A stretch of 64,000 bases of DNA from Salinispira sp. (GCA_965226555.1 CBDDDG010000010.1:160001-224000), one strand, 5' to 3'. Shown: positions 4,233 to 63,718, numbered from the stretch's first letter. Numbers and translations: made by a program. The notes: a model not told the origin generated them from the letters alone.

Positions 4233-5699
4233 TTATTCCCCCGTGGGCGGACGCGCCCCGGTCGCCAAGTCGTAGGCGTAAATTCTGTCATCTTCATCAC
4301 TCATTACCCACATTGTTGTTCCATCCGACCAAATATCAATGCTTTGATTATTTTCACCACCAATCACGTTAAAATCTTTACTACTATCGTGGGTGTTAGA
4401 GCTCAGGGTGTAGGCATAGATTTTCTTATCTTTATTATCCGCCACCCACATGGTTGTTCCATCCGACCAGAGGCCATAGTAGTCAACATTCGCGCTCGTA
4501 AACGTGATATCACTTGTCGTAACTGCTGTTGCAGAGGTCTTGTCAGTTACATCGTAGGCTCTGAGGGACGTACCGCTGGCAGTAAACGTCAGCCACATTG
4601 TTGTGTCATTCGCCCAGATTCCTTGGGGAAAAACAATAGTCGTGAAATCCTTGCCCGTATCGTATGACTGGTCACTCATCTTGTAGGCATAGAATTTGAG
4701 ATCATTCCAATCTGCCACCCACATCGTTGTTCCATCCGACCAGATACCGCGGGCGGAGTTATTCAAGCTAGTAAGCGCAAAATCTTTGTCTTCATCGCGT
4801 TCCTTAGTAATCATGTTGTAGGCATAGATTTTGTCATCAATATTATCCGACACCCACATTGTTGTTCCATCCGACCATATTCCTCCGGGGTCAGTATTCC
4901 CGGCAGCGGCAAGCGTGGTGAAATCGTCTTTGCTGTAGCCATAGGGGTTATAAAAATTGCCGGTGTCGCGGTGAATTCCTCCAACGTCAAAGCCTGCCGC
5001 GTTGTAGCCGTCTTCATCGTAGCCGTCCAGATCGTAGGGTTCATCGGTGTCGCGGTGAATGCCCGCAAGGTTAAAGCCTGCCGCGTTGTAGCCGTCCTTG
5101 TCGTAACCGTACCGGTCGTAGATATCGTCGGTGTCGCGGTGCATACCCATTTCATCAAAACCGTTTGCGTCATAGCCGGTCGAGTCATAGCCCTCTTTGT
5201 CATACCCGGCCGAGTCAAAGCCGTTTGCGTCATAGCCATTCGAGTCGTATTCTGTGCCGTTGCGGTGAATGCCTGCAAGGTTAAAGCCAGCGGCGTTGTA
5301 GCCGTCATTGCCGTAACCGGATCGGTCATATTCCGTGCCAGTGTCTCGGTGATTGCCATCGGCATTAAAGCCCTCTATGTCATGGCCGGTCGAGTCATAG
5401 CCCTCTTTGTCATACCCGGCAGAGTCAAAGCCGTTTGCGTCATAGCCATTCGGGTCGTATTCCGTGCCGGTATCCCGATGAATACCATCGTCATTAAAGC
5501 CGGACGGGTCGTATTCCGTGCCGGTATCTTGATGAATGCCATCGGCATTGAAGCCGTTTGGACCATACATTTCACAGGCCGTGAGAATTAATATTAGGGT
5601 AAACATGAAAAAGAGCCCTCTCAGCAGCTGCGGGCTGAGAAAACGTTTCCTGCTTTCCTTTTGTTTATTATCAGAAATCTGCATACACATATCCTCCAT
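4233..5699 (-). CDS. Repeat-rich lipoprotein with C-terminal beta-propeller-like repeats
   Basis: Lipobox LILTAC; many YDxxGYDxxGFNxxGIHRDT repeats; GIWSDGTTMWV repeats. Confidence 0.8.
   Translation of the reverse strand: MEDMCMQISDNKQKESRKRFLSPQLLRGLFFMFTLILILTACEMYGPNGFNADGIHQDTGTEYDPSGFNDDGIHRDTGTEYDPNGYDANGFDSAGYDKEGYDSTGHDIEGFNADGNHRDTGTEYDRSGYGNDGYNAAGFNLAGIHRNGTEYDSNGYDANGFDSAGYDKEGYDSTGYDANGFDEMGMHRDTDDIYDRYGYDKDGYNAAGFNLAGIHRDTDEPYDLDGYDEDGYNAAGFDVGGIHRDTGNFYNPYGYSKDDFTTLAAAGNTDPGGIWSDGTTMWVSDNIDDKIYAYNMITKERDEDKDFALTSLNNSARGIWSDGTTMWVADWNDLKFYAYKMSDQSYDTGKDFTTIVFPQGIWANDTTMWLTFTASGTSLRAYDVTDKTSATAVTTSDITFTSANVDYYGLWSDGTTMWVADNKDKKIYAYTLSSNTHDSSKDFNVIGGENNQSIDIWSDGTTMWVMSDEDDRIYAYDLATGARPPTGE
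4930..5560 (-). repeat. Intragenic tandem repeats with near-exact internal duplication
   Basis: 5176-5257 is nearly identical to 5386-5467. Confidence 0.85.
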
Positions 5700-18100: not shown

Positions 18101-18349
18101 TTAATGCGATCCGTTCCGCAATGTCCGCATTTCCTTATCGCTCAGCCCGGTAACATCCTGAATGTCATGGGCTGAAAATCCTTTGGAAAACATACTGCGG
18201 GCCGTTTCTCGAATGCCTTCTTCACGACCTGTTCGCAGTCCTTTCTGCAATCCTTCCTGCCGACCTGTCTGAAGTCCTTCTTCGCGGCCTTCCTGCCGAC
18301 CCATCTCCGCAATGTGAGCTCTGAATGTTTCCGCATTCATTCTGAACAT
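18101..18349 (-). CDS. Intact nested RpnS-like protein (82 aa)
   Basis: AAGGAGG 8 nt before ATG (MFRMNAE..). Confidence 0.6.
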   Translation of the reverse strand: MFRMNAETFRAHIAEMGRQEGREEGLQTGRQEGLQKGLRTGREEGIRETARSMFSKGFSAHDIQDVTGLSDKEMRTLRNGSH

Positions 18350-18957
18350 TTTCGCTACCTCCTTACCTCTCGGTTCTTTTGTTCTTTCTAATTGATTCAT
18401 TAACGTATCGAAGTCTATAACAATTCCGAACATCAAATCTACCACGCCGACAAATTCCTTTATCAGCTCCAGCGATTCTTCATTCAGCATTTCTGCTATC
18501 GCTTTCTCCACCTTCTGAATGTCCCAATCCGTATTCAGCAGATTTTTCGAGTACAGATCAAGGTACATAACAGCCGCAAACATTCTTCCCCGCTGCTGCA
18601 GCTGCTCCGCAGAATAATCGTTCTCACTTATCAGATCGTAGGGAAAAGGAGCAAGATACTGCGGGAATTCCCGCGTGTTCTGCTCTCTGACATTCCCGGG
18701 CACCTTCCATTTTCTCGTACCATTATAGAACACAATGGGCAGAAATACCAATTCACAGTCATCGGGAATTGCTCCAGAGCGGTGAATGTTCCGATAGAGA
18801 AGGTTTGTGTACTCCGACATGCGGAGGGGCATGTCTTTGTCCATGCGCCTCCGACAAAGCGTTGAAGAAATTGGAGCATTATTGCGGGTTGGAACAGCAG
18901 GGAGCGGTATCCTTGGTCGTAGGGAACGGGGGCGGGTTTTTCTTTGAAATCGATCAT
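18101..18957 (-). pseudogene. Rpn family nuclease (subfamily B) inactivated by a 160-bp internal deletion
   Basis: Relative to the 50207-51414 paralog, the segment between two TGGAC pentamers is missing; this removes ADIV..EHQS and shifts the frame. Confidence 0.85.
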
Positions 18958-19254
18958 ATAATTCCTCCTGAAGGTTTCTTATGAACGTTTTTTTCTGAAT
19001 AGGGGAGTTCCCATGGCGATGTGATGCCATGGTGAATTCTCTCCTCCTATATCTATAACGGGTAAACGGTCATTTTTGACTATGTTTTTTGAAAAAATTT
19101 GAAAAAAGTTTGCAAAATGTTGTGAATTTTTTTCGGATTGGGAGGGATTTTCGGGGCTACGGGAGGGGAGGGCTCGGGAACTGTTCCCGTTACGGTAAGA
19201 AGATACAGTGATCCCGAAAAATCGACCCGGTAATTTTCCATGAAAATTCATGTA

Positions 19255-19479
19255 CAAAGTTTTGCTACTGAAAATTGTGCTTGCACAATTTTCCAATGAG
19301 GATTCTCTCATCTATATGTTTGATTCTCTCAAGGTATAGAAAGTTTTGCCACAGGCAAAACTTTATCAATGCAAAACTTTCTATAAAATAGGAGAATGCT
19401 CAGCACATACAAAGCATTTCGAATCTGAAACTTTTGCTACTGGAAATTGTGCTTGCACAATTTCCAATGCAAAAGTTTC
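19255..19479. mobile_element. 225-bp composite MITE containing all modules (A-C-B-b-D-A)
   Basis: Ends CAAAGTTTTGC ... GCAAAAGTTTC; flanking direct repeat ATGTA at 19250-54 and 19480-84. Confidence 0.85.
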
Positions 19480-19579
19480 ATGTAGATAGTTGATATTCCT
19501 GATACTTTGTAGTAGTCTTTAAGAAAGGTTTCAGCGCGTATTCGCACTGAAACATATTTTTAGAAAAAGGAGTATTAAA

Positions 19580-21718
19580 ATGATGTTTAATCTTTTTAAT
19601 CCACTACGAAAGTTATGGGGGGGGACGTCCTCTGTATTGATTATAATGAGCGTGGTTCTCATTGCCGTGCTTGCCGGATGTCCGGGGCCAGATCCTGTTC
19701 CGGGAGGTGATCCTGATCCTGTCACTGTTCCTGCCGCGCCGGCTGCTCCCACCCTCAATGTGGGGAACGCCGCGCTGACTGTTACATGGGCAGCGCCCGA
19801 TAACGGCGGCAGCGCCATTACCGAGTACCATGTGCAGCACAAAGAAAGCACCGCAGACTGGCCAGCGGACGGCACAACCAATACCGCCGCTATCGGCGGT
19901 ACTGTAACAAGCCACACCATTTCCGGGCTGGACAACACAACCAGTTACGATGTGCGGGTGCGCGCGGTCAATGCGCAGGGCGCGGGGAACTGGTCGACAT
20001 CTGCCGCTGCAACACCAAGCGCATCCCATCCTCCAGCGCCGAATACGCCCACCCTTGTTGCGGGGAAAGGGAAGCTAACTGTTACTTGGGAAATGCCGAT
20101 TATTGCCGCCGGTGCCAGCGCCATTACCACGTACCATGTGCAGCACAAACTAAGCACCGCAAGCTGGCCAACGGACGACTCAACGGACACCGCCACTATT
20201 AATGACGGCACTGCTACACGCCACGTCATTTCCGGGCTGATAGGCGGCAGTTCGTACGATGTACGGGTGCGCGCAGAAAATGAGGATACATTGCTTGGCG
20301 CATGGTCGCAGCCTGCCACTGCAACCCCTCTCTCAACTTCCACTGTTCCTGCCGCGCCAACTGCTCCCACTCTCGAAGCGGGGAACGCTTCGCTTAGGGT
20401 TACATGGACAGCGCCCGATGACGGCGGCAGCGCCATTACCGGGTATAACCTTCGCCATAGCGCGGACGGAGGAACCCCATGGACGCCTATTACCTCCGGC
20501 ATCACCGGCACAAGCCACACCATTACTGGGCTGACAAACGGCGCCAGCTACCACGTACAGGTACGCGCCGTTAACGCTGTGGGCGATGGCGGCTGGTCTG
20601 AATCCGCAACGGAAATGCCGGCAATAATAATTTCATCGACCCAGACTCCCGCGGGTACGGCAGCGACGGTAAGCCTTTCGGCTGCCTCTAATGCCATTAT
20701 TACCGCTGAGAGCCCAACCGTTGCTTTGACAGTGGTGGAACCGGGCACTCTCGCGGTTACTGAATCAGCCATTACGGTCACCGCCGCAACTGCGCCCGCA
20801 GGGGTTGCCATTCCGACAGTTGATTCGGGTACCGGCATGGTTACGGTTACCGCGACGACAACGGCAGGAACATATCTGGTATATGGCAGCAAAGCCGGAG
20901 ACATACTCTTTGCCGAATTTTTCTTTGTTACCGTGAGTCCTGCTGATAACGCTGCACTGAAAACAGCGGTAAATAATGGGATAACAACTTGGGGCACAGC
21001 AGTCATTGATCCTGCTGGCGATGGCAACGATACTGGCAAAACCGGTGACGACTACACCTATGCCGATCTCAACTACATTGTTACCACGGCAGTAACGGAT
21101 ATGTCCGAAGTGTTTTTTAGTAGCACATTCAATGGCGATATCTCCGGCTGGGATACTAGCGCGGCAACAACTATGTATAGGATGTTCGCTGGAGCAAGCG
21201 CATTCAATGGCGATATCTCGGGCTGGGATGTCAGCTCGGTAACGAATATGTACCAGATTTTCGCTGTGAGCGCATTCAATGGCGATATCTCGAAATGGGA
21301 TACTACAGCGGTAACAGTTATGTATGGGATGTTCAGTCAAGCAAGCACATTCAATAGCGATATCTCCGCATGGAATGTCAGTGCGGTAACGAATATGTCC
21401 GCTATGTTCAAGGAAGCAAGCGCCTTCAATGGCAATATCTCAAACTGGAAAACTGGTGCGGTAACGACTATGTCCAATATGTTCGATAGAGCAAGCGCAT
21501 TCAATGGCAATATTTCCGGCTGGGATGTCAGTTCGGTAACGAATATGCTCACTATGTTCTATTCTGCAAGCGCATTCAATCAGGATCTTGAAAACTGGGC
21601 GAAGGATGCGAATGGTAACAACTTGACCACTGGCAGCTGGAACGATGGCGCATATACCGGAATCAAAACAAATATGTTTTTGAATTCCGGCGTAACAACG
21701 CCGCCGTCATGGTATTAG
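19580..21718 (+). CDS. Surface lipoprotein with three fibronectin type III domains and BspA/DUF285-type repeats
   Basis: Lipobox LAGC; three VTW..P.DGGSAIT.Y..Y.VRVRA.N units; repeated FNGDISGWDVSSVTNM. Confidence 0.9.
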   Translation: MMFNLFNPLRKLWGGTSSVLIIMSVVLIAVLAGCPGPDPVPGGDPDPVTVPAAPAAPTLNVGNAALTVTWAAPDNGGSAITEYHVQHKESTADWPADGTTNTAAIGGTVTSHTISGLDNTTSYDVRVRAVNAQGAGNWSTSAAATPSASHPPAPNTPTLVAGKGKLTVTWEMPIIAAGASAITTYHVQHKLSTASWPTDDSTDTATINDGTATRHVISGLIGGSSYDVRVRAENEDTLLGAWSQPATATPLSTSTVPAAPTAPTLEAGNASLRVTWTAPDDGGSAITGYNLRHSADGGTPWTPITSGITGTSHTITGLTNGASYHVQVRAVNAVGDGGWSESATEMPAIIISSTQTPAGTAATVSLSAASNAIITAESPTVALTVVEPGTLAVTESAITVTAATAPAGVAIPTVDSGTGMVTVTATTTAGTYLVYGSKAGDILFAEFFFVTVSPADNAALKTAVNNGITTWGTAVIDPAGDGNDTGKTGDDYTYADLNYIVTTAVTDMSEVFFSSTFNGDISGWDTSAATTMYRMFAGASAFNGDISGWDVSSVTNMYQIFAVSAFNGDISKWDTTAVTVMYGMFSQASTFNSDISAWNVSAVTNMSAMFKEASAFNGNISNWKTGAVTTMSNMFDRASAFNGNISGWDVSSVTNMLTMFYSASAFNQDLENWAKDANGNNLTTGSWNDGAYTGIKTNMFLNSGVTTPPSWY

Positions 21719-21774
21719 GAGCAGTTTCATAGCCCGCAGCCCTCAGCGGCTATTGAAACGTTGCAATTCAACTC

Positions 21775-21810
21775 AGGCAGGCGCGGATTGTTCCGTGCCT
21801 GCCTTTTTTT
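21775..21810 (+). terminator. Rho-independent terminator
   Basis: AGGCAGGCGCGGA / TCCGTGCCTGCCT stem followed by a T run. Confidence 0.8.
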
Positions 21811-21897
21811 CGATAAGACGGCTGGTCGCGCTTCCGCGTTGCTCGCCCGGGCCCGGCTCGCCATGCGGCGGGATCAGGTCAATATCTCAAAATAATA

Positions 21898-21952
21898 GAA
21901 ACTTTTGCATTGGAAAATTGTGCAGAGCAAAATTTTCAGTAGCAAAACTCTG
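21898..21952. mobile_element. MITE module A
   Basis: Palindrome flanked by TAATA on both sides (21893-97, 21953-57). Confidence 0.8.
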
Positions 21953-21970
21953 TAATATCTCAAAATAATA

Positions 21971-23310
21971 GAAACCTTTGAATAACTCCATTATATCTGC
22001 CGGTAGTCTTTTTTCCACGCAGAAAAAATTATTCATCGTTTTTCACGTTATTCTCTTCAGCATCCTCCGTCTTTTTTCGGCGCGATACGCGCTATATTCG
22101 TTCTTTTTTTCATCTTTTTTCAGTATTTCCCTCATTTCCGGCAGCAGTACCGCCATAAGGGCACAGCTATCCTGTTGTTATGCCGCAACCGCAGAGTTTT
22201 CCAGCGCCATGTTCCCCATTCGCCGTTTCATGCCGATCATCTGTTTCAGATTATACATAATCGCCATACACATAAACCGACTCTGATTCCTCTGAACTCC
22301 CATATACCGCGCCTTTCTTGCGCCGCAATGGAGTTTGCTCAGACCAAAAAACCGCTCCACCGTATTCCTTACGCGCGACCGCCCGTAATTCGCCTGCTTC
22401 TGTTCATCGGTTAACGGTGTGTTCCGATACGCCCGCTCATGTATCTGATTCTCTATGCCCATCTCCTCAAGCATCGCAGCAATCGCTTTACTCCGGTACG
22501 CGGCATCCGCGTACACCACCGTCTCATTTCCCATAATCAATTCGCCAAATAGTTTGCTGTCATGAATATTGGCCGCAGTCACCAGCAGTTTCTTCGCCCG
22601 TCCCTTCTCATTTACCGTCACGTGTATCTTGAAACCGTAGGTTGTTCGTACCGTTCCATCGCCTCCCCTCTTACTCGCGTAGGCCGCTTCAGGATCCTGT
22701 GTCGATTCTCCTGCGTCATTTTTTTTCTTCCGATGCCGCGAAGCCTGTATGACACTCGCATCAATTATGCTGACTGTGCCCCGGTGCACTTCACAATCCT
22801 GCGTGTCCAACTGCGCATTCACCGTGTCCAAGAGCGCGCTGAGAATATTCTTACGGGTCAGTTGTTCCCGAAACCGCCATATCGTGGAATGATCGGGAGT
22901 ATCATCGAGAACATTGAGCCCCACAAAACGCTTGTATGCCAAGTCGCAGGCAAGCGCATTTTCCATGCCTTCATCGCTGAGATTCTGCCACGATTGCAGC
23001 AACAGCACTTTGAACATCATAACCGGATGATATCCTTTCGCGCCCATCGATTTGTTGTTGATAGCACAGAGCATCTCCCCAATTTCCTTCCAATTGATCA
23101 GTTCATACAGACTATCGAAGCGTTTCAGCGCTTTACTTTCCTGAATACCCTGATTGATCAGCGATCCATGATGTTCTTTCCAATTATTTCCCATTGCGTT
23201 CTCCTGTTTCAGCGCCGGACAGCGCACAATACAACCCGATTGCTCATTCCCAGCTCTCTGTGTGAATTTTCTTCAAAATACCATTATTCCCGATGATGTG
23301 CAAAGGTTTC
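21971..23310 (-). mobile_element. IS5-family insertion sequence (1340 bp)
   Basis: TIRs GAAACCTTTG / CAAAGGTTTC; TAATA duplication, confirmed against the empty site in sister repeat units. Confidence 0.9.
22178..23194 (-). CDS. IS5-family DDE transposase
   Basis: LSDEGME, PDHSTIWRFRE, IIDASVI, YGFKIH, VYADAAY, RNTVERFFG; AGGAG RBS. Confidence 0.93.
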   Translation of the reverse strand: MGNNWKEHHGSLINQGIQESKALKRFDSLYELINWKEIGEMLCAINNKSMGAKGYHPVMMFKVLLLQSWQNLSDEGMENALACDLAYKRFVGLNVLDDTPDHSTIWRFREQLTRKNILSALLDTVNAQLDTQDCEVHRGTVSIIDASVIQASRHRKKKNDAGESTQDPEAAYASKRGGDGTVRTTYGFKIHVTVNEKGRAKKLLVTAANIHDSKLFGELIMGNETVVYADAAYRSKAIAAMLEEMGIENQIHERAYRNTPLTDEQKQANYGRSRVRNTVERFFGLSKLHCGARKARYMGVQRNQSRFMCMAIMYNLKQMIGMKRRMGNMALENSAVAA

Positions 23311-23663
23311 TAATAGAAACTTTTTACAAAAATTTCTCATATTCACCATTCATATTTACCCCGTCTATATAGTATGAGCGGAAAATATATCGGTATGGCG
23401 CCACTCTGACCCACGCAGGATCAATTTTCGGGCTATCTTACGCAGTCAGTCGGATATCGCCATAGACGCGCTATCCCGAGCTCCCTGAGCGCGCCCGCCG
23501 CCGGAAACTGCTGGCTCCGCCTTAATGCCCAAAACACCGAATACTCTCTTACCGGGCAATTCATATCAATTCACCTTTGCAAAACACAACATTCTTTCAA
23601 ATTCTTTCCCAAAACATAGTTAAAAATGACTTTTCTCCCGTTATAGATGTAAGAGGAATATTT

Positions 23664-24701
23664 ATGAAAAAATCATCCCACAGCACAGGCCATATCCACG
23701 ACATAGCCTTCAAGATCGCCTACTACAGAACCCCCCGTATGATTCTCGACCTGCTGCGGCTGTTCTGTGAAGATACAACGCTTACCAAGCTGGATCTGGA
23801 CAAAATCCGCATTGAAACCCCCAGCTACATTGCAGGAAAAAAGAACCTTCACTGCGATCTCGTTGTCAGTGCCCCCTTCCTGTCAGACCCCGACCGGAAA
23901 TCTATTTTTATTATTGAGCATAAAAGCTACCTGAATAAACATGCTCTCACTCAAATCGATAACTATCAGTATGTCATCAGAAACAGCAATGTGTACAATG
24001 AAAATGATGCTATCTATATACTGCTGCTCTACCATGGAAAAAAGGAATGGAACCTCCCACTCACATTTTACAGTTCTCATGGAAATGCTGCTTCCGAATC
24101 CATGACTGAAGGCACGGTAGATGTCAGGGTAAAAGTGTCGTACATTGTGCGCGATCTGAGGCGAATGGACAAAAAGCAGTTGGCATGGCGCTTCAATGGA
24201 AAACGATATACATCGACTGCGTTGTGGTATATAATGCGAGACAATGAAATGAACGATGAGGGGCTGAAAGAAATTGCGCAGCTCCTGAACGATCTGTCTT
24301 CACAAGACTTTACTGATCTGGCAGAGAGTGTGCTAGGCTATCTAAAAGATTTGGGACTGTATGAACAGTTTGAGAAAATTGACAGGAAACTATATCCTGA
24401 AGGAGAAAACAGTATGCGGACATATAATATAACCAACGCCTTCGTCAGGGAAGGCATTGCGAAGGGCCGGATTGAGGGAATGGAGAAGGGCATTCTGAAA
24501 GGCCGGATTGAGGGACTTGAGCAGGGACTTGAGCAGGGTCTTGAGCAGGGTCGTGCTGAGCTCCAGCGTGAACATGATCGAACCCAACGTGAGCAGGTAC
24601 TCAAAATGCTCAGGAAGGGCATATCGATGGACATTATTCATGATATCACCAATCTCAGCGGGGATGAAATTCGAACATTTCAGAAAAACGGTGAAGCGTA
24701 G
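23664..24701 (+). CDS. Rpn family nuclease (subfamily A, unit 1, intact); nested RpnS-like ORF from 24414
   Basis: HDIAFK, LHCDLV, FIIEHKSY, LLLYHG, EGLEQG repeats; internal AAGGAG-ATG. Confidence 0.9.
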   Translation: MKKSSHSTGHIHDIAFKIAYYRTPRMILDLLRLFCEDTTLTKLDLDKIRIETPSYIAGKKNLHCDLVVSAPFLSDPDRKSIFIIEHKSYLNKHALTQIDNYQYVIRNSNVYNENDAIYILLLYHGKKEWNLPLTFYSSHGNAASESMTEGTVDVRVKVSYIVRDLRRMDKKQLAWRFNGKRYTSTALWYIMRDNEMNDEGLKEIAQLLNDLSSQDFTDLAESVLGYLKDLGLYEQFEKIDRKLYPEGENSMRTYNITNAFVREGIAKGRIEGMEKGILKGRIEGLEQGLEQGLEQGRAELQREHDRTQREQVLKMLRKGISMDIIHDITNLSGDEIRTFQKNGEA

Positions 24702-25048
24702 CAGCGCTACTTCAGCGCGCCCCGCGCCGGGGTCAGGTCCAACAGTAATATCTCAAAATAATAAAAACTTTTTGAAAAAATTTCTTATATTCACCATTCA
24801 TATTTACCCCGTCTATATAGTATGAGCGGAAAATATATCGGTATGGCGCCACTCTGACCCACGCAGGATCAATTTTCGGGCTATCTTACGCAGTCAGTCG
24901 GATATCGCCATAGACGCGCTATCCCGAGCTCCCTGAGCGCGCCCGCCGCCGGAAACTGCTGGCTCTGCCTTAATGCCCAAAACACCGAATACTCTCTTAC
25001 CGGGCAATTCATATCAATTCACCTTTGAAAAACACAACATTCTTTTAA

Positions 25049-26760
25049 GAGCCTGTCGGACTTTACCCGGGTTGATAGTGGTATTGCGTTTGATTGGAGA
25101 ATCTGATATAGTTTTTTCATGCAACGATTTAAGTCATGTAGTCAAGATCAACAATTCCTGATGCCTCTTGATATGAGAGATTGGGTTCCCGAAGATCATC
25201 TGGTCAATTTTATTAACGAAGCGGTAAGCACCATAGACAGTACCGTTTTTCATATCAATAGGCGGGGAAGCGGGAGCGAGCAATATCATCCGAAAATGAT
25301 GCTTGCCTTGCTGATATATAGCTACACGGAAGGACGATTTAGCAGTCGCCGGATAGAACGGTCAACGTACGAGAATATCTGTGCGCTCTATCTGACCGGC
25401 AACACGCATCCCGATCACGATACTATTTGTCGCTTTCGCCGAAAAAATACAGAAGCGATACACAAAGCGTTTATCCGTATTCTGCTGCTTGCCAAAGAGA
25501 TAGGCATTCTGAAGGTCGGGACGGTCAGTATAGATGGGACACACATTAAAGCCAATGCGAGTAAATTCGAAAATGTGAGCTATGATCGGGCTGAGGAGCT
25601 GGAGAAACGGCTTGATGAGGACATTCAGAAATTGTTAGTGGAGGCAGAAGCGGCCGATACCGCAGACGATGAGGATGCGAACAGATTACCACAGGAGATT
25701 GCCCGAAGGCAGAAACTCCGCGAAAAGATGATCCATGCGCGAGCTGAAGTGGAAAGACGCGCGCGTGTCCGCGAGGAAAGAGAACAGGAGAAAGCGGAGA
25801 AAAAAGATGGAGCAAATGATACGGAAGATGTTTCCCCCGGCGGGGGAGCGAAGACAGACGCTCAGAGCGAAGGGCCTCCTGATCGGGCGATCCCGCCTGC
25901 GGACGGACAGAAAACACTTTTTGCCGATGATGATCCTGAAGACATTTCAGCGAAGGCGCAGGAGATTCTGCCGAAGGGCGAGCAGGCATGCAACAACACT
26001 GATCCTGACAGCCGTATTATGACAAAGGGATCGGGAACACAGCAGGCCTATAATGCTCAGGCGGTAGTCGATGCCGATGGCACGCAATTAATTGTCGGGA
26101 CGCGTGTTTCCCAGTGTTCATCTGACCGGAATGAACTGGTAAACGATTGTCTCTCTGTTCCCCCAGATGTCGGGAAGCCCGAGCGAGCGCTTGCTGACGC
26201 GGGCTTTGTCAATGGCGATGAAGTGAAAACAGTAGAGGAAGAAATGGGGATAGATGTTCTGGTGTCTGTTCGGGCTGAAGAGACACATAATCCGCGAGAA
26301 TACGACTATCGACCGGAAGAGAAGAAGGCCAACACCACGCCTCCAAAAGAATCCAAGCCATGGATAAAAGATATGAACGCCAAATTTCAGAAGTCCGAGA
26401 ACCGAAAACTCTATGCCCGCAGGAAGCAGACGGTGGAACCGGTATTCGGGATTATTAAGCAGTGCATGGGATTTCGACAATTTCTCCACAGAGGCCTTGC
26501 ACATGTTACGAGTGAATGGGAACTTGTCGCGTTGGCTTATAATTGCAAGAGACTTCATCGACTGAAAATGACCTATGGATAATAGAAAAACTCCCCCCGT
26601 TGCGCCCGCGCATAGTTCCAACTGGCATCATCGAAGCGCGAATGGGTTCACGATGCCACCCCGCGCCTGAAGAAAACAACGCGATAACTGACGGCAATAC
26701 TCATTCCCACATCCATCGACTCACATCAAACAACATGAGGTATTTATGTACGACAGGCTC
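25049..26760 (+). mobile_element. IS1182-family insertion sequence (1712 bp) in the unit 2 leader
   Basis: TIRs GAGCCTGTCG / CGACAGGCTC; TTAA duplication; empty site visible near 29700. Confidence 0.92.
25119..26582 (+). CDS. IS1182-family transposase
   Basis: YHPKMMLALLIYSY, SSRRIE, PDHDTICRFR, IDGTHIKANAS, TDPDSR, RKQTVEPVFG. Confidence 0.93.
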   Translation: MQRFKSCSQDQQFLMPLDMRDWVPEDHLVNFINEAVSTIDSTVFHINRRGSGSEQYHPKMMLALLIYSYTEGRFSSRRIERSTYENICALYLTGNTHPDHDTICRFRRKNTEAIHKAFIRILLLAKEIGILKVGTVSIDGTHIKANASKFENVSYDRAEELEKRLDEDIQKLLVEAEAADTADDEDANRLPQEIARRQKLREKMIHARAEVERRARVREEREQEKAEKKDGANDTEDVSPGGGAKTDAQSEGPPDRAIPPADGQKTLFADDDPEDISAKAQEILPKGEQACNNTDPDSRIMTKGSGTQQAYNAQAVVDADGTQLIVGTRVSQCSSDRNELVNDCLSVPPDVGKPERALADAGFVNGDEVKTVEEEMGIDVLVSVRAEETHNPREYDYRPEEKKANTTPPKESKPWIKDMNAKFQKSENRKLYARRKQTVEPVFGIIKQCMGFRQFLHRGLAHVTSEWELVALAYNCKRLHRLKMTYG

Positions 26761-26827
26761 TTAAATCCCTTCCAAAAACATAGTCAAAAATGACTTTTTA
26801 CCCGTTATAGATGTAGGAGGAATGTTT

Positions 26828-27908
26828 ATGAAAAAATCATCCCAGAGCAAATGCCATATCCACGACATAGCCTTCAAGATCGCCTACTACAGAACCCCCC
26901 GGCTGATTCCCGACCTGCTGCGGCTGTTCTGTGAGGATACAACGCTTGCCAAGCTGGATCTGGACAAAATCCGCATTGAAACCCCCAGCTACATTGCAGG
27001 AAAAAAGAACCTTCACTGCGATCTCGTTGTCAGTGCCCCCTTCCTGTCAGACCCCGATCGGAAAGCTCTTTTTATTATTGAACACAAAAGCTACCTGAAT
27101 AAACATGCTCTCACTCAAATCGATAACTATCAGTATGTCATCAGAAACAGCAATGTGTACAATGAAAGGGATGCTATCTATATACTGCTGCTCTACCACG
27201 GAAAAAATGAATGGAACCTCCAGCGCGAATTTTACAGTTCGCATGGAAATCCAGCTTCCGAATCCCTTACCGAAGGCACGGTAGATGTCAGGGTGAAAGT
27301 GTCGTACATTGTGCGCGATCTTTGTAGAATGACAAAGAAACAGTTGGCATGGCGTTTCGATGGAAAACGATATACATCGACTGCGTTGTGGTATATAATG
27401 CGAGATAATAACAAAGTTTTTCCTAAAGGAAAAACTTTCTATACCTTGAGAGAATCAAGAGTATAGATGAGAGAATCCTCATTTGAAAATTGTGCAGAGC
27501 ACAATTTTCAGTGAGATGGATGCTGAGGGGCTGAAAGAGATTGCGCAGCTCCTGAACGGTCTGTCATCACAAGACTTTACTGATCTGGCAGAGAGTGTGT
27601 TAGGCTATCTAAAAGATTTGGGACTGTATGAGCAGTTTGAGAAAATTGACAGGGAACTGTTCCCTGGAGGAGAAAACAGTATGCGGACATATAACATAAC
27701 CAACGCCTTCGTCAGAGAAGGTATTGCGAAGGGCCGGGTTGAGGGTCTTGAGCAGGGGCGTGCTGAGCTCCAGCGTGAACATGATCGAACCCAACGTGAG
27801 CAGGTACTCAAAATGCTCAGGAAGGGCATATCGATGGACATTATTCATGATATCACCAATCTCAGCGGGGATGAAATTCGAACATTTCAGAAAAACGGTG
27901 AAGCGTAG
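26828..27908 (+). pseudogene. Rpn unit 2, long form disrupted by a 103-bp MITE; RpnS-like ORF 27681-27908 intact
   Basis: Comparison with units 1 and 3. Confidence 0.88.
27410..27512. mobile_element. 103-bp MITE (modules B-C-partial A)
   Basis: Absent from units 1 and 3; adds a stop codon and a frameshift. Confidence 0.85.
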
Positions 27909-28318
27909 CAGCGCTACTTCAGCGCGCCCCGCGCCGGGGTCAGGTCCAACAGTAATATCTCAAAATAATAAAAACTTTTTGAAAAAATTTCTCATATTCA
28001 CCATTCATATTTACCCCGTCTATATGGTATGAGCGGAAAATATATCGGTATGGCGCCACTCTGACCCACGCAGGATCAATTTTCGGGCTATCTTACGCAG
28101 TCAGTCGGATATCGCCATAGACGCGCTATCCCGAGCTCCCTGAGCGCGCCCGCCGCCGGAAACTGCTGGCTCCGCCTTAATGCCCAAAACACCGAATACT
28201 CTCTTACCGGGCAATTCATATCAATTCACCTTTGCAAAACACAACATTCTTTCAAATTATTTCAAAAAACATAGTTAAAAATGACTTTTCTCCCGTTATA
28301 GATGTAAGAGGAATGTTT

Positions 28319-29356
28319 ATGAAAAAATCATCCCAGAGCACAGGCCACATCCACGACATAGCCTTCAAGATCGCCTACTACAGAACCCCCCGGCTGATTC
28401 CCGACCTGCTGCGGCTGTTCTGTGAAGATACAACGCTTACCAAGCTGGATCTGGACAAAATCCGCATTGAAACCCCCAGCTACATTGCAGGAAAAAAGAA
28501 CCTTCACTGCGATCTCGTTGTCAGTGCCCCCTTCCTGTCAGACCCCGACCGGAAATCTATTTTTATTATTGAGCATAAAAGCTACCTGAATAAACATGCT
28601 CTCACTCAAATCGATAACTATCAGTATGTCATCAGAAACAGCAATGTGTACAATGAAAATGATGCTATCTATATACTGCTGCTCTACCATGGAAAAAAGG
28701 AATGGAACCTCCCACTCACATTTTACAGTTCTCATGGAAATGCTGCTTCCGAATCCATGACTGAAGGCACGGTAGATGTCAGGGTAAAAGTGTCGTACAT
28801 TGTGCGCGATCTGAGGCGAATGGACAAAAAGCAGTTGGCATGGCGCTTCAATGGAAAACGATATACATCGACTGCGTTGTGGTATATAATGCGAGACAAT
28901 GAAATGAACGATGAGGGGCTGAAAGAAATTGCGCAGCTCCTGAACGATCTGTCTTCACAAGACTTTACTGATCTGGCAGAGAGTGTGCTAGGCTATCTAA
29001 AAGATTTGGGACTGTATGAACAGTTTGAGAAAATTGACAGGAAACTATATCCTGAAGGAGAAAACAGTATGCGGACATATAATATAACCAACGCCTTCGT
29101 CAGGGAAGGCATTGCGAAGGGCCGGATTGAGGGAATGGAGAAGGGCATTCTGAAAGGCCGGATTGAGGGACTTGAGCAGGGACTTGAGCAGGGTCTTGAG
29201 CAGGGTCGTGCTGAGCTCCAGCGTGAACATGATCGAACCCAACGTGAGCAGGTACTCAAAATGCTCAGGAAGGGCATATCGATGGACATTATTCATGATA
29301 TCACCAATCTCAGCGGGGATGAAATTCGAACATTTCAGAAAAACGGTGAAGCGTAG
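28319..29356 (+). CDS. Rpn unit 3 (intact); nested RpnS-like ORF from 29069
   Basis: Nearly identical to unit 1. Confidence 0.9.
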   Translation: MKKSSQSTGHIHDIAFKIAYYRTPRLIPDLLRLFCEDTTLTKLDLDKIRIETPSYIAGKKNLHCDLVVSAPFLSDPDRKSIFIIEHKSYLNKHALTQIDNYQYVIRNSNVYNENDAIYILLLYHGKKEWNLPLTFYSSHGNAASESMTEGTVDVRVKVSYIVRDLRRMDKKQLAWRFNGKRYTSTALWYIMRDNEMNDEGLKEIAQLLNDLSSQDFTDLAESVLGYLKDLGLYEQFEKIDRKLYPEGENSMRTYNITNAFVREGIAKGRIEGMEKGILKGRIEGLEQGLEQGLEQGRAELQREHDRTQREQVLKMLRKGISMDIIHDITNLSGDEIRTFQKNGEA

Positions 29357-30071
29357 CAGCGCTACTTCAGCGCGCCCCGCGCCGGGGTCAGGTCCAACAG
29401 TAATATCTCAAAATAATAAAAACTTTTTGAAAAAATTTCTCATATTCACCATTCATATTTACCCCGTCTATATAGTATGAGCGGAAAATATATCGGTATG
29501 GCGCCACTCTGACCCACGCAGGATCAATTTTCGGGCTATCTTACGCAGTCAGTCGGATATCGCCATAGACGCGCTATCCCGAGCTCCCTGAGCGCGCCCG
29601 CCGCCGGAAACTGCTGGCTCTGCCTTAATGCCCAAAACACCGAATACTCTCTTACCGGGCAATTCATATCAATTCACCTTTGAAAAACACAACATTCTTT
29701 TAAATCCCTTCCAAAAACATAGTCAAAAATGACTTTTTACCCGTTATAGATGTAAGAGGAATATTTATGAAAAAATCATCCCACAGCACAGGCCATATCC
29801 ACGACATAGCCTTCAAGATCGCCTACTACAGAACCCCCCGGCTGATTCCCGACCTGCTGCGGCTGTTCTGTGAGGATACGACTCTTGCCAAGTTGGACCT
29901 GGACAAAATCCGCATTGAAACCCCCAGCTACATTGCAGGAAAAAAGAACCTTCACTGCGATCTCGTTGTCAGTGCCCCCTTCCTGTCAGACCCCGAGCGG
30001 AAAGCTCTTTTTATTATTGAACACAAAAGCTACCTGAATAAACATGCTCTCACTCAAATCGATGACTATCA

Positions 30072-30202
30072 CAAAGTTTTGCCACAGGCAAAACTTTCTA
30101 TGAAATAGGAGAATGCTAAGCACAAAGAAAGCATTCCGAATTTGAAACTTTTGCTACTGGAAATTGTGCTCTGCACAATTTCCAGTAGCAAAAGTTTCTG
30201 TA
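30072..30202. mobile_element. 131-bp MITE insertion (modules B-D-A)
   Basis: Absent from the other units; matches the reverse complement of 50556-50686. Confidence 0.85.
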
Positions 30203-30479
30203 GCATGCCCTCAGAAACAGCAATGTGTACAATGAAAATGATGCTATCTATATACTGCTGCTCTACCATGGAAAAAATGAATGGAACCTTCCACTCACAT
30301 TTTACAGTTCTCATGGAAATGCTGCTTCCGAATCCATGACTGAAGGCACGGTAGATGTCAGGGTAAAAGTGTCGTACATTGTGCGCGATCTTTGTAGAAT
30401 GAAAAAGGAGCAGTTGGCATGGCGTTTCGATGGAAAACGATATACATCGACTGCGTTGTGGTATATAATGCGAGATAAT

Positions 30480-30582
30480 AACAAAGTTTTTCCTTTAGGA
30501 AAAACTTTCTATACCTTGAGAGAATCAAGAGTATAGATGAGAGAATCCTCATTTGAAAATTGTGCAGAGCACAATTTTCAGT
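30480..30582. mobile_element. 103-bp MITE at the same site as in unit 2
   Basis: Nearly identical to 27410-27512. Confidence 0.85.
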
Positions 30583-31220
30583 GAGATGGATGCTGAGGGG
30601 CTGAAAGAGATTGCGCAGCTCCTAAACGATCTGTCTTCACAAGACTTTACTGATCTGGCAGAGAGTGTGCTGGGTTATCTAAAAGATTTGGGACTGTATA
30701 AACAGTTTGAGGAAATTAACAGGAAACTATATCCTGAAGGAGAAAACAGTATGCGGACATATAATATTACCAACGCCTTCGTCAGGGAAGGCATTGCGAA
30801 GGGCCGGATTGAGGGAATGGAGAAGGGCATTCTGAAAGGCCGGATTGAGGGACTTGAGCAGGGACTTGAGCAGGGGCGTGCTGAGCTCCAGCGTGAACAT
30901 GATCGAACCCAACGTGAGCAGGTACTCAAAATGCTCAGGAAGGGCATATCGATGGACATTATTCATGATATCACCAATCTCAGCGGGGATGAAATTCGAA
31001 CATTTCAGAAAAACGGTGAAGGATAATAGTGCCATATACCGGAATCAAAATAAATATCTTCGTGAATTCCGGTATAATCATATCACCATGAAGAATGACA
31101 TTGATCGGCTTGTCTCAAACATCACATCAATTATATATGTTGAACGAAGGAATCTTGAGTATATTATTGTAGCCATGATCATGGGCGGGCTGCAAAAAAC
31201 TTTGTCAGTGAGGTATTTCT

Positions 31221-32331
31221 ATGCTTGAAGAATTTCAGAACCCTATAAAAGAACTGCATGAGCTCATATTCAATACATGGAGGCATCTTTGACCCCGCTG
31301 GTATTCAGAAACAGGTAAGGGAACTGGAGGAAAAGACTGCGGTGCCCGGCTTTTGGGAATCGTCCAAAAATGCCGAAGCTGTTATGGGACAGATAAAGCG
31401 CCTGCGCGCCGGCATTGAACCCTGGCAGGAACTTGTGCGTGCGATTACCGATCTTGGAGACCTTTTTGAGCTTGCCCATGAAGAACATGATGAATCGGTA
31501 ACTGCCGATATCCGCAATGGTCTTGAGGAAATTCAGAAGAAATATGACAGGCAGAAAATTATTCAGCTCCTCTCCGATACCTACGATGCCAACGGATGTT
31601 ATTTAACCATTCATTCGGGCGCGGGAGGCACCGAGGCCTGCGACTGGGTAAGTATGCTTCTGCGCATGTACAGCCGTTGGATTGATGACCGGAATTTCAC
31701 GGCGCGCACTCTGGATATGCAGGAGGCCGAGGGCGGAATAAAATCGCTTACCCTGCACATTGACGGCGCCTATGCCTATGGATACCTCAAGGGGGAAACC
31801 GGGGTGCACCGCCTCGTGCGTATATCGCCTTTTGACTCATCGGGACGCCGTCATACCTCATTCGCCTCGGTCTATGCCAGCGCAATTATTGATGATACTA
31901 TTGACATTGATATATCGCCGGATCAGATCCGCATCGATACCTACCGGGCAAGCGGAGCCGGAGGCCAGCATGTAAATACAACCGATTCGGCTGTTCGCAT
32001 TACTCATATTGAAAGCGGAATTGTTGTACAATGTCAGAATGAGAGAAGTCAGCACAAAAATAGGGAACAGGCCATGAAAATGTTAAGATCCCGTCTGTAC
32101 GATTTTTATAAGGCGCAGCAGGAGGCTGAAAAGCAGAAGCATGCTTCTGAAAAACGCGACATTTCATGGGGGAGCCAGATCAGATCCTATGTTTTTCAGC
32201 CCTACACCATGGTGAAGGATCTCCGCACCCGAAGGGAAACCGGAAACATTCAGGCTGTTATGAACGGCAACCTTGATATTTTTATTGAGTCCTACCTGCA
32301 GATGCTCTGGAACAAGAGATCGGGGGCATAG
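31221..32331 (+). CDS. prfB: Peptide chain release factor 2 with programmed +1 frameshift
   Basis: ATG 31221; GGAGG-cat-CTT-TGA-C at 31279-31293; SPF and GGQ motifs. Confidence 0.97.
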
Positions 32332-50206: not shown

Positions 50207-51414
50207 TTAATGCGATCCGTTCCGCAATGTCCGCATTTCCTCATCGCTCAGCCCGGTAACATCCTGAATGTCATGGGCTGAAAATCCTTTGGAAAACATA
50301 CTGCGGGCGTTTTTTCTCCGCTCTTCAATATGCCCCTCAGCGCGGCCTGCCTGTAGCCCCTTTTGAAGTCCTTCTTCACGACCTGTCTGAAGTCCTTCCT
50401 GCCGACCTGTCTGCAATCCTGTCTGAAGTCCTTCTTCGCGACCTGTTCGCAGTCCTTCCTGCCGACCCATTTCCGCAATGCGCGCTCTGAATGTTTCCGC
50501 ATTCATTCTGAACATTTTTGCTACCTCCTTACCTCTCGGTTCTTTTGTTCTTTCTGAAACTTTTGCATTGGAAAATTGTGCAAGCACAATTTCCAGTAGC
50601 AAAAGTTTCAAATTTGGAATGCTTTCTTTGTGCTTAGCATTCTCCAATTTTATAGAAAGTTTTGCCTCTGGCAAAACTTTGCTTCTAATTGATTCATTAA
50701 CGTGTCTAAATCTATAACAATTCCAAACATAGAATCTACCACGCCGACAAATTCCTTTATCAGCTCCAGCGATTCCTCATTCAGCATTTCTGCTATCGCG
50801 TTCTCCACCTTCCGAATGTCCCAATCCGTATTCAGCAGATTTTTCGAGTACAGATCAAGGTACATAACAGCCGCAAACATTCTTCCCCGCTGCTGCAGCT
50901 GCTCCGCAGAATAATCGCTCTCACTTATCAGAGCATAAGGAAAGGGGGCAAGATACTGCGGGAATTCCCGCTTCCGTTGCTCTCTGACGTTCCCGGGCAC
51001 CTTCCATTTTCGCGTACCATTATAGAACACAATGGGAAGAAATACCAACTCGCAGTCATCGGGAATTGCACCGGAGCGGTGAATGTTCCGATAGAGAAGG
51101 TTTGTGTACTCTGACATGCGGAGGGGCATGTCGTTGTCCACTCCAGACTGATGCTCAAGGAGCACATAGATAGCAACATCTCCCGTATGATCCCGACTTC
51201 TGATTTTGCAGACGATGTCGGCCATTCGTGTTTTCGCATGGTCAATGAAAAAGGTACCGTTTTCGATGGTGATGTCTTCACGGCGCAATTTTTTCGTCCA
51301 TGCGCCTCCGACAAAGCGTTGAAGAAATTGGAGCATTATTGCGGGTTGGAACAGCAGGGAGCGGTAGCCTTGGTCGTAGGGAACGGGGGCGGGTTTTTCT
51401 TTGAAATCGATCAT
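50207..51414 (-). pseudogene. Rpn subfamily B, long form disrupted by a 131-bp MITE; RpnS-like ORF 50515-50207 intact
   Basis: RMADIV..LLEHQS..MPLRM; insertion absent from the 18.1-kb paralog. Confidence 0.88.
50556..50686. mobile_element. MITE (B-D-A on the coding strand), 126-bp core plus 5-bp duplication
   Basis: Flanks TTTCT/CTTCT; empty site near 18385. Confidence 0.85.
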
Positions 51415-51576
51415 ATAATCCTCCTGAAGGTTTTTTTTGAACCTTTCTTTCTGAATAGGGGAGCTCCCATGGCGACATGGTCCCATGGTGAATTCTCTCC
51501 TCTATATCTGTGACGGGTAAACTGTCATTTTTGATTGTGTTTTTGGAAATAATTTGCAAAAAGTTTTGCTACTGAA

Positions 51577-51819
51577 TATAGCTTTTCGGTCGGGGTCTGA
51601 CAGGAAGGGGGCGCTGACAACGAGAGCGCAGAGAAGGTTCTTTTTTCCTGCAATGTAGCTGGGGGTTTCAATGCGGATTTTGTCCATGTCCAGCTTGGCA
51701 AGCGTTGTATCCTCACAGAACAGCCGCAGCAGGTCGAGAATCATCCGGGGGGTTCTGTAGTAGGCGATCTTGAAGGCTATGTCGTGGATGTGGCCTGTGC
51801 TGTGGGATGATTTTTTCAT
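51577..51819 (-). pseudogene. 5' fragment of an Rpn subfamily A gene, truncated at a MITE end
   Basis: MKKSSHSTGH..DPDRKA, then AAAGTTTTGCTACTGAA near 51560-51576. Confidence 0.8.
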
Positions 51820-52206: not shown

Positions 52207-52260
52207 CAAAGTTTTGCTACTGAAAATTGTGCTTGCACAATTTTCCAATGCAAAAGTTTC
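52207..52260. mobile_element. MITE module A
   Basis: Flanks TATTA/TATTG; same leader position as the 21898 copy. Confidence 0.8.
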
Positions 52261-52307
52261 TATTGACCTGATCCAGACGCATGAGCGAGCAGGCCGAGCA
52301 GCGCCAA

Positions 52308-53390
52308 TTACTGCGATCCGTTCCGCACTGTCCGCATTTCCTCATCGCTCAGCCCCGTAATTCTCTGAACAGCCTTGGTCGACAACCCTTCCAAAAACAT
52401 ACTGCGGGCGTTTTTTCTCCGCTCCTCAATATGCCCCTCAGCACGACCTGTTCGCAGTCCTTTCAGAATGCCCTCAGCCCGGCCCTTTGTGATACCCTGC
52501 TCAAGACCCTCAATCCGGCCCTTCGCAATGCCTTTCTGACATACGTTGGTAATATTATATTCCCATACTGTTTTCTCCTACTGAAACTTTTGCATTGGAA
52601 AATTGTGCAGAGCCTTCCCTCACGAAGGCGTTGGTTATGTTATATGTCCGCATACTGTTTTCTCCTTCAGGATATAGTTCCCTGTCAATTTTCTCAAACT
52701 GTTCATACAGTCCCAAGTCCTTCAGGTAACCTAGCACACTCTCTGCCAGATCAGTAAAGTCTTGTGAAGACAAACCGTTCAGGAGCTGCGCAATCTCTTT
52801 CAGCCCCTCAGCATCCATTTCATTGTCTCGCATTATATACCACAACGCAGTCGATGTATATCGTTTTCCATCGAAACGCCATGCCAACTGCCTCTTGTCC
52901 ATTCGCCTCAGATCGCGCACAATGTACGATACTCTCGCCCTGACATCTACCGTGCCTTCGGTAAGGGATTCGGAAGCAGCATTTCCATGCGAACTATAAA
53001 ATGTGAGTGGGAGGTTCCATTCCTTTTTTCCATGGTAGAGCAGCAGTATATAGATAGCATCATTTTCATTGTACACATTGCTGTTTCTGAGGGCATGCTG
53101 ATAATTATCGATCTGTGCGAGAGCCTGTTTGTGCTGGTAGCTTTTATGTTCAATAATAAAAAGAGCTTTCCGCTCGGGGTCAGACAGGAAGGGGGCGCTG
53201 ACAACGAGATCGCAGTGAAGGTGCAATGTAGCTGGGGATATCAATGCGGATTTTATCCATGTCCAGCTTGGACAGCGTTGTATCCTCTCAGAACAGCCGC
53301 CAGGTCGGGAATCATCCGGGGGGTTCTGTAGTAGGCGATCTTGAAGGTTATGTCGTGGATGTGGTCTGTGCACTGGGATGATTTTGTCAT
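52308..53390 (-). pseudogene. Decayed Rpn subfamily A gene with a hybrid tail
   Basis: 5' frameshifts; half-MITE at 52583-52613; duplicated internal start; B/C-type tail. Confidence 0.8.

Positions 53391-62135: not shown

Positions 62136-63718
<1,583 letters not shown>

Follow-up and report, generated by a model that had tools for sequence, protein, structure and literature searches.

Rpn nuclease genes with a nested small frame, present in about 170 often disarmed copies in a Salinispira genome

The stretch of DNA analyzed here, which we call the window, comprises 64,000 nt of a Salinispira sp. assembly (GCA_965226555.1 CBDDDG010000010.1:160001-224000), and coordinates given without a contig handle are positions within it. 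It carries nine loci of the rpn family, whose genes encode a PF04754 nuclease (the full-length product, RpnL) and contain an in-frame internal start codon that opens a small C-terminal frame (RpnS). Four of the loci form a tandem array behind a gene for a DUF285 surface protein. Across the genome the same design recurs about 170 times, with more than half of the nuclease parts broken and nearly all small frames open, a pattern that suggests a self-neutralizing nuclease cassette spreading behind DUF285 genes.

Results

Nine rpn loci and a four-unit array

The sequence-only reading that preceded this analysis had counted nine rpn loci in 64 kb, and the count stands. It had also taken them for an amplification of the full architecture, which they are not, as only three of the nine (2398-3573, 23664-24701, and 28319-29356) encode a whole nuclease; the small frame is open in seven. 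Its term "toxin-antitoxin array" likewise goes too far for the window, as two of the four array units and six of the nine loci lack a whole nuclease. Hairpin inserts of 103-131 nt disrupt the loci at 26828-27908, 29767-31026, and 50207-51411.

Each unit of the array measures about 1.45 kb, and the first spacer, between units 1 and 2, holds an insertion sequence (IS). A surface-protein gene flanks the array on one side and a release-factor gene on the other. Unit 3 departs from unit 1 at 5 of 1038 nt and has the identical RpnS frame, and units 2 and 4 have a 103-nt insert in common; on this sequence pattern, the array is probably a duplicated doublet.

A family that fills 6% of the genome

The assembly (2.98 Mb, 26 contigs, 93.5% complete, 6.67% estimated contamination) was searched for rpn copies from both ends of the gene. 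A tail-first census, from which three low-scoring tail matches were dropped, gave 163 internal starts, which belong to seven subfamilies (A 70, C 51, B 15, D 12, E 12, G 2, F 1) with 16-35% sequence identity among them, and a head-first search added 10 further internal starts (total 173) plus one duplicate restart in the window. Together, rpn DNA amounts to 179 kb, or 6.0% of the genome, in 110 clusters, 80 of which are single genes. PF04754 has 161 candidate matches here as against 0-9 in each of 98 other genomes of the order, which are mostly fragmented assemblies in which repeats may be collapsed; the five single-contig genomes of the order have 0-4.

In a scan of metagenome contigs, subfamily A had no relative. 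Proteins with 85-86% identity are on record under Salinispira sp. Three public runs, all of one sample that is perhaps the source of the assembly, have contigs that cover the array at 97% or more and show the organism and many variants to be present; contig depth in this sample gives no copy number. At 52140-51960 on the minus strand and at about 50 places in the genome, a decayed leader with the first ~45 codons of an E-type rpn gene lies upstream of most A and C units, and these units often have an E-type tail downstream, so that rpn genes sit nested in the remnants of another rpn gene.

The internal start

Seven internal ATGs had been picked out from the sequence alone, at 2808, 18349, and 50515 on the minus strand and at 24414, 27681, 29069, and 30751 on the plus strand. 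All seven lie in frame within PF04754 genes, with a Shine-Dalgarno (SD) sequence 7-8 nt upstream of each: AAGGAGGT at 2808 and TAAGGAGGT at 18349 and 50515 (spacing 7), AAGGAG at 24414, 29069, and 30751 (spacing 8), and GGAG/AGGAG at 27681 (spacing 8). An eighth internal ATG in the window, at 52653 on the minus strand, opens a small frame that is broken.

Genome-wide, every one of the 163 starts in the tail-first census is ATG, and 160 of them have an SD match of at least 5 nt; among 9061 ATGs inside 1149 other long open reading frames (ORFs), 3.7% do. The other in-frame ATGs upstream in seven subfamily representatives (n = 47) have a 5-nt SD in only two cases and a 6-nt SD in none. The 16S tail of the same genome carries the standard anti-SD. 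Linker residues before the start differ among subfamilies (EGENS-M, KEVID-M, KEVAK-M, and EEVKR-M), and the SD is kept; its codon is GAG, although GAA is twice as common. Random synonymous recoding matches the observed SD with P = 0.05-0.29 per subfamily, the product being 6e-7 if the seven are independent. An SD with ATG or GTG also stands at the tail boundary in 14 of 15 full-length relatives from other genomes of the order, a count that leaves out three truncated loci and one own-genome locus, with one not hit. Stand-alone copies of the small gene start just upstream of the internal SD. By analogy with characterized systems, separate translation of a small tail protein from this start is likely.

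Candidate promoters accompany the start. The best promoter-like site between 23200 and 31300 lies inside each array unit (10/12 matches), 178 nt before the internal ATG, and the spacers before the four main starts hold no plus-strand site of 9/12. This motif is present in 24 of 28 intact and 58 of all 70 subfamily-A copies; 1.4% of background windows score as high. At the homologous place, 4 of 4 subfamily-D copies have TTGACA-17-TATTAT (0.3% of background windows). As motifs, those of A and D are strong and that of subfamily B is moderate. We regard the internal promoters of A, B, and D as candidates defined by sequence motif. A second, weaker promoter-like site (9/12) at 24370-24398 ends 15 nt before the internal ATG, and an insert site occupied in 17 A copies adjoins its end.

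The small tail protein

An AlphaFold model of the unit 1 protein (138 sequences, mean predicted local distance difference test score 82) comprises an α/β domain, a helical domain, a low-confidence linker, a 67-residue helix that begins at exactly Met251, and two short helices, the predicted tail helices being at 251-317, 322-329, and 333-342. The family profile matches PDB 7TH0, the crystal structure of E. coli RpnA-S, via the tail (E = 3.6e-6); a single-sequence search of solved structures gave no match. Most subfamily-A proteins match PF27070 (HTH_Rpn_C), and the tail resembles the helix-turn-helix (HTH) DNA-binding domains of resolvases.

The predicted tail proteins measure 60-140 residues and consist of a head typical of the subfamily, four-residue repeats in varying number, and an end that can be exchanged. 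The repeats begin ~14 (A) and ~17 (C) residues past the internal Met, and a single class modulo 4 accounts for the RpnS lengths of 59 among 68 A copies and 49 among 50 C copies. The same 26-residue end can recur in as many as three subfamilies; in the window array, an A head is joined to an E end. Of the small proteins, 153 of 156 are distinct. Stand-alone E-type heads lie just downstream of other rpn genes (three intact, four broken).

Domain boundary, SD, candidate promoter, and predicted tail fold match the E. coli RpnL/RpnS design. The gene-within-gene reading is well supported by the SD statistics, the candidate internal promoter, the domain boundary at the Met, the 7TH0 profile match, and the 14 of 15 relatives, and the long nuclease with a C-terminal small inhibitor that it had called established is indeed the published RpnL/RpnS design (Zhong et al. 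2023, PMC10400941).

The nuclease part

PF04754 matches score 41.7 (A), 50.1 (B), and 64.4 bits (C) over a cut-off of 21; TIGR01784 reaches 32.7 and 34.3 bits, below its cut-off of 52.1. Residues D13, D65, and E85 of unit 1 align with the catalytic D11, D63, and E82 of RpnA, as mapped via a Pantoea plasmid Rpn and not RpnA itself, and D65 and E85 are invariant in 138 aligned sequences. A wide structural search gave middling scores, with coiled coils as most of the matches; for the N-domain, the candidate PD-(D/E)XK fold, the best was 2vld, a Pyrococcus repair endonuclease (Z 6.5, root-mean-square deviation 2.9, 101 aligned), and McrBC 6hz4 had Z 6.1.

In subfamilies A and D, Lys replaces the residue equivalent to RpnA Q84, and Gln the one equivalent to R94. 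This K..Q pair occurs in 32 of 32 A and D copies and in 14 of 126 database proteins, and the Q..R pair in 42 of 42 B, C, E, F, and G copies and in 104 of the 126. The combinations K..R and Q..Q are found in none of the 74 genome copies and in none of the 122 of 126 database proteins in which the motif was read. Because K..Q and Q..R cover all 74 open copies and 118 of the 126 database relatives, the A/D active site may be one in which the pair is swapped yet working. The covarying residues 87 and 97 of unit 1 are encoded at 23922-23954. Intact nuclease parts have ratios of nonsynonymous to synonymous substitution of 0.25 (A), 0.17 (C), and 0.36 (B), and these sequence ratios show purifying selection on them.

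Lopsided decay and hairpin inserts

The nuclease part is open in 74 of 163 copies and broken in 89, for the most part through hairpin inserts, and small frames are open in 160 of 173 (156 by script, one with an in-frame deletion by eye, and three from the head-first search). There are 73 intact copies with 72 distinct tails and about 87 inhibitor-only loci. Hairpin inserts occupy 17 sites (97 inserts) in nuclease parts as against one in RpnS (P = 0.013 by length). Lesions common to 2-18 copies make up 21 of 49 in nuclease parts and none of 13 in small frames, where all are single (Fisher P = 0.003); the lesion count leaves out one B copy split by the aligner and one E linker-length variant. 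The private-variant ratio is 0.3 in intact and 0.5-0.6 in broken nuclease parts, and for the first 14 codons of A-type RpnS it is 0.06-0.07 in intact and broken copies alike. GGAG is lost in four copies, all with a broken nuclease part (P = 0.09), and no intact copy has lost the SD. Decay thus appears lopsided toward the nuclease part, on sequence tests that are only moderately strong.

Because the 97 inserts stand at only 17 sites and their carriers are no closer kin than non-carriers, the distribution fits spread among rpn copies by conversion; repeated insertion at hot spots is the alternative. Read-through of the inserts was considered and rejected: most shift the frame (103, 130, and 131 nt), and those of in-frame length (102, 129, 132, and 156 nt) still leave no open nuclease frame.

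The inserts belong to a modular family of AT-rich hairpin elements with 517 patches (45.7 kb), 115 of which are in rpn loci and 12 in other long ORFs; of the long elements, 101 of 213 lie within rpn loci. Others in the window are at 21896-21956, 19252-19485, 52203-52262, 54573-54627, and 2183-2243, and in 13 of 47 subfamily-C copies an element stands 15-17 nt before the main start codon. A separate GC-rich hairpin repeat of ~40 nt has 228 patches, 125 of them near rpn on the same strand (for example, at 21820-21880). It also occurs, as at G000:C10:539527-539566 and G000:C19:23830-23869, in tandem runs or singly inside a hairpin or another repeated element, and may itself be mobile.

Recombination among copies

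Copies within subfamilies A and C are 86-99% identical. Informative site pairs fail the four-gamete test there in 65-82% of cases when they are over 30 nt apart and in 50% when they are closer, and five insert sites occur in 12 combinations among copies. RecA and MutS domains are present in the genome. Judged by these sequence tests, the rpn copies are one recombining pool.

Signs of transposition were also sought. The 93.5%-complete assembly has no match to Y1 HUH transposase, reverse transcriptase, or PDDEXK_2. No IS ends, terminal inverted repeats, or target duplications of rpn units were seen by eye in sampled flanks, and no formal search for target duplications was made. The boundaries of the units are variable and grade into shared repeats. 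We considered a composite transposon with hairpin elements at its ends and rejected it, as an element stands on both sides in only 6 of 122 clusters.

Placement behind DUF285 genes

A DUF285 gene precedes the rpn genes in 57 of 123 stranded clusters, on the same strand and no more than 3 kb away; the remaining three orientations account for 8, 2, and 1. Viewed from the surface-protein genes, an rpn start follows within 2.6 kb on the same strand in 50 of 94 DUF285 genes as against 35 of 1063 other long ORFs (odds ratio 33). Association of rpn with fn3, IS5-like, and IS1182-like loci is near the random range. In the common layout, the DUF285 stop is followed by a conserved trailer that contains a terminator-like hairpin, then by GC-rich repeats, the leader of an E-type rpn, and an A, C, D, or E gene. 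The window array has this DUF285-trailer-leader layout, with an IS5-like element in the leader. Among filled DUF285 loci, 39 of 50 carry the trailer motif, and among empty ones 10 of 39 do.

The DNA 3' of rpn-bearing DUF285 genes has a median identity of 61% (maximum 83%), far below the 86-99% of the rpn copies, and hence the units either colonized older sites or were homogenized there. DUF285 genes of at least 300 aa number 41 of 44 without rpn, 19 of 20 with an intact rpn, and 28 of 30 with a broken one.

The DUF285/fibronectin-III genes are themselves expanded, with ~94-109 loci and 190 Pfam matches as against 0-14 in 20 relatives; from this expansion of surface proteins, one might guess at a host-associated lifestyle. 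Four subfamily-D copies (G000:C14:144475, 146602, and 204047; G000:C10:308563) end at the same point in a DUF285 repeat motif with a different repeat after each; this suggests that rpn trailers have recombined with DUF285 repeats.

Other features of the window

The features are collected in Table 1. The IS5 and IS1182 labels are those to which we take the two window elements to belong. Directly after the array, 31258-32331 is an ORF like release factor 2 (labeled by eye), the start of which suggests the usual frameshifted prfB layout. A repeat-rich, lipoprotein-like gene of 488 aa at 4233-5699 on the minus strand has no Pfam match above cut-off and 45 related loci in the genome. An Rfam search of the window gave no match. 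In a PADLOC/Pfam scan of neighbors within the window, an orphan methyltransferase stands beside the B copy and nothing defense-like beside the array. Three genes at 58872-63722 are a possible small defense cluster: a Fic gene, one of 692 aa that matches nothing in Pfam or PADLOC, and one for a type I methyltransferase. The Fic and methyltransferase genes lie 5-9 kb from the rpn cluster at 50-53 kb.

Table 1. Coordinates of rpn loci and associated features in the window
Feature	Position	Strand	Remarks
DUF285 + fibronectin-III surface protein gene, lipoprotein-like N terminus	19580..21718	+	Pfam PF03382, PF00041; array behind it on same strand
Conserved DUF285 3' trailer, terminator-like hairpin, GC-rich short repeats	21719..21880	+	Common to most rpn-bearing DUF285 loci
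Start of rpn leader, duplicated around 61-nt hairpin element at 21896-21956	21881..21983	+	
DDE transposase (IS5-like), inserted in rpn leader	22178..23227	-	Public-run contig joint skips 21957-23317
Unit 1: intact rpn, subfamily A, 345 aa (RpnL)	23664..24701	+	Catalytic D13, D65, E85 (by alignment); K87/Q97 at places of RpnA Q84/R94
Candidate internal promoter TATACA-17-TATAAT, unit 1	24207..24235	+	178 nt 5' of internal ATG; also at 27371, 28862, 30441
Nested RpnS frame, unit 1, 95 aa	24414..24701	+	SD AAGGAG 24400-24405; subfamily-A head + subfamily-E end
IS (IS1182-like by Pfam content), terminal inverted repeats, TTAA target duplication	25049..26760	+	Inside unit 1/2 spacer
Unit 2: hairpin insert breaks nuclease frame	26828..27908	+	RpnS frame 27681-27908 (75 aa) open
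103-nt four-hairpin insert, unit 2	27410..27512	+	z -10.2; ~10 nt past internal -10 box; site occupied in 18 subfamily-A copies
Unit 3: intact rpn	28319..29356	+	RpnS 29069-29356
Unit 4: two hairpin inserts (30071-30201, 30480-30582) break nuclease	29767..31026	+	RpnS 30751-31026 (91 aa) open
Intact rpn, subfamily B, 391 aa	2398..3573	-	RpnS 2808->2398 (136 aa, 7-residue repeats); candidate internal -10 TATAAT 2868-2863
rpn, subfamily C, 160-nt frameshifting deletion common to 7 copies	18101..19030	-	RpnS 18349->18101 (82 aa) open
rpn, subfamily C, 131-nt hairpin insert (50552-50682) 40 nt 5' of internal ATG	50207..51411	-	RpnS 50515->50207 (102 aa) open
Subfamily-A stub, 82 codons, ends at recurrent hairpin-insert site	51574..51819	-	
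Frameshifted subfamily-A copy	52310..53390	-	Sole copy genome-wide with hairpin insert within RpnS frame

Discussion

The explanation that we consider probable is a self-neutralizing nuclease cassette in about 170 recombining copies, spreading behind DUF285 genes, with separate translation of RpnS, its binding to RpnL, and toxicity of RpnL taken over by analogy with the published system. The internal promoter and SD would keep RpnS in excess over the full-length nuclease, which RpnS would silence by dimerizing with its same helix. With RpnS in excess, a new copy would be harmless on arrival, so that expansion would be permitted. Homologous recombination via the DUF285 trailer, GC repeats, rpn leader, and hairpin elements, rather than IS-type transposition, would move and mix the units. 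With copies numerous, no single locus would need its nuclease part, and disabling inserts could then spread by gene conversion as small-frame lesions do not. Changes in repeat number and swaps of the end helix would give nearly every copy its own RpnS, limiting cross-neutralization.

A number of observations weigh against this explanation. Subfamily C, with 51 copies, has no convincing internal promoter motif. D65 is absent from 3 of 28 intact A copies, and the subfamily A of the array has K87 at the place of RpnA Q84, in which the Q84K change abolished all phenotypes (PMC5350276). The 17:1 count of insert sites is confounded by the insert preference of the hairpin element, which often lies beside AGGAG (once on the antisense strand), and the Fisher test of lesion sharing is not significant when only the five tail-first RpnS lesions are used (P = 0.14). 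Small frames are not always spared, either: among extra stand-alone E-type small heads, four of seven are broken, several tail remnants are headless, and the truncations in ~30 nuclease fragments without RpnS are not biased toward keeping it. If specificity is strict, open orphan RpnS frames are unexplained, since only 1 of 83 is identical to the RpnS of an intact gene. As to spread, a shared repeat stands on both sides in only 32 of 122 clusters, and an old co-duplication with DUF285 followed by gene conversion fits the identity gap equally well.

A stronger version, which we hold to be rather doubtful, makes the unit a homing-like selfish element: the inhibitor-checked nuclease would promote the recombination that copies the unit into the DUF285 trailer and reshuffles heads, repeats, and HTH ends into ~150 private keys. 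Nuclease activity may also move the hairpin repeats, for which no transposase was found in the assembly. We judge it unlikely that the family is instead a selected anti-phage arsenal of ~70 active pairs, with each tail tuned to a different phage trigger, the expansion adaptive, and the broken copies mere turnover. RpnP2 protects E. coli against T-even phages (PMC10400941), Koonin suggests that separate copies target separate phages (PMC10400984), and the 73 intact copies with their 72 tails and the purifying selection on their nucleases would suit such a role. However, the nuclease part is broken in 89 of 163 copies and individual disabling inserts recur in 13-18 copies, the array lies between surface-protein and release-factor genes and not among defense genes, PADLOC gives Rpn proteins no nuclease-model match, and defense does not predict placement behind DUF285 genes. 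That placement could also mean that the nucleases are local recombination promoters that diversify DUF285 proteins, with the small protein regulating cutting and swapped end helices choosing DNA sites. Rpn proteins do promote RecA-independent recombination, and the variable tail has been proposed to set DNA preference (PMC5350276); the tail is HTH-like, the odds ratio is 33, and both families are expanded here and rare in relatives. A diffusible enzyme needs no place beside its target, however, 30 of 50 adjacent DUF285 loci lack an intact nuclease, and the DUF285 3' ends are far apart in sequence, which makes this reading improbable.

We think it very improbable that the start goes unused, the SD and ATG being a by-product of a conserved Gly/Glu-x-x-Met linker and the genes selfish repeats in decay that make a single product. 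For subfamily A, the SD is a modest one (5-6 nt) and is matched by synonymous recoding 20% of the time, and subfamily C lacks a clear internal promoter, but seven subfamilies and 14 of 15 relatives keep SD and start despite different linker residues, GAG is chosen over the commoner GAA, stand-alone copies begin just before the SD, and genes of E. coli and C. difficile have been proven to use this start (PMC10400941). Addiction modules, in which each pair kills cells that delete the neighboring DUF285 locus and so stabilizes a repeat-rich genome, would account for tight linkage to DUF285 and for the 153 of 156 unique tails that multi-copy addiction needs. Yet DUF285 genes without rpn are equally long and intact and most linked units are unable to make toxin, and we give this reading very little credence. 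Hardly credible at all is an artifact of mixed-strain metagenome assembly, to which the 26 contigs and 6.67% estimated contamination might point as a source of copy number and mosaics: the copies are spread over 110 clusters that differ in their flanks and stand on long contigs, close protein variants occur on short contigs of other assemblies, and the public-run contigs (three runs, one sample) carry filled and empty forms of the 103-nt insert site.

If the self-neutralizing cassette is the right explanation, this genome suggests that a system filed under phage defense can behave as a selfish repeat family that takes up 6% of a genome. The 14 of 15 relatives extend the internal-start design to spirochaetes. 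Insulation and site preference become testable with natural sequences, as the genome offers 73 intact pairs with 72 different tails, about 87 loci with the inhibitor alone, an active-site variant from nature, and a repeated preferred site in filled and empty form. Were the homing-like version true, these filled and empty sites would reveal to which target and by which route Rpn genes move, which earlier work failed to find.

Comparison with known systems

The hairpin inserts recall elements that we take to be of a like kind, REP/BIME, PATE, and Rickettsia RPE. They share the gene-less, multi-hairpin build, here in inserts of 60-230 nt without a clear target duplication and in ~500 patches, and differ in that they break the frame instead of being read through.

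The architecture itself is published and is not new; what is new is the scale, the half-disarmed state, the recombination, and the placement behind DUF285 genes. A literature search, thin on subscription journals and with partly off-topic returns, found no rpn expansion of this size and no link to DUF285. Published work leaves open the route of Rpn gene movement (PMC5350276, PMC10400941), the cause of rpn repeat variation, and the insulation of copies by repeat number within one cell (PMC10400984).

With E. coli rpnA-E and rpnP2 and the C. difficile RpnL/RpnS (PMC10400941), the family shares the PF04754 nuclease with a variable tail, the internal SD and ATG at the start of the long predicted helix with a candidate internal promoter, the variable four-residue repeats and predicted three-helix end, and the stand-alone downstream RpnS and tandem arrays without IS ends. 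It differs in number, with ~170 copies where E. coli K-12 has 5 and the richest genome that Zhong et al. name, the highest published count that we found, has 26 (PMC3196728 counts two such genes), and in that over half are nuclease-disarmed. End modules here are common to subfamilies only ~21-35% identical, the genes lie behind DUF285 genes where the others lie in defense islands, A and D have K..Q instead of Q..R, and one B copy has 7-residue repeats.

RpnA-D, the YhgA-like nucleases of Kingston et al. 2017 (PMC5350276), have the same equivalents of catalytic D11, D63, and E82, and their PDDE motif is not kept here. The preferred location recalls the independent rpnC insertions at one locus described there; in this genome, the preferred trailer is repeated ~90 times, both filled and empty.

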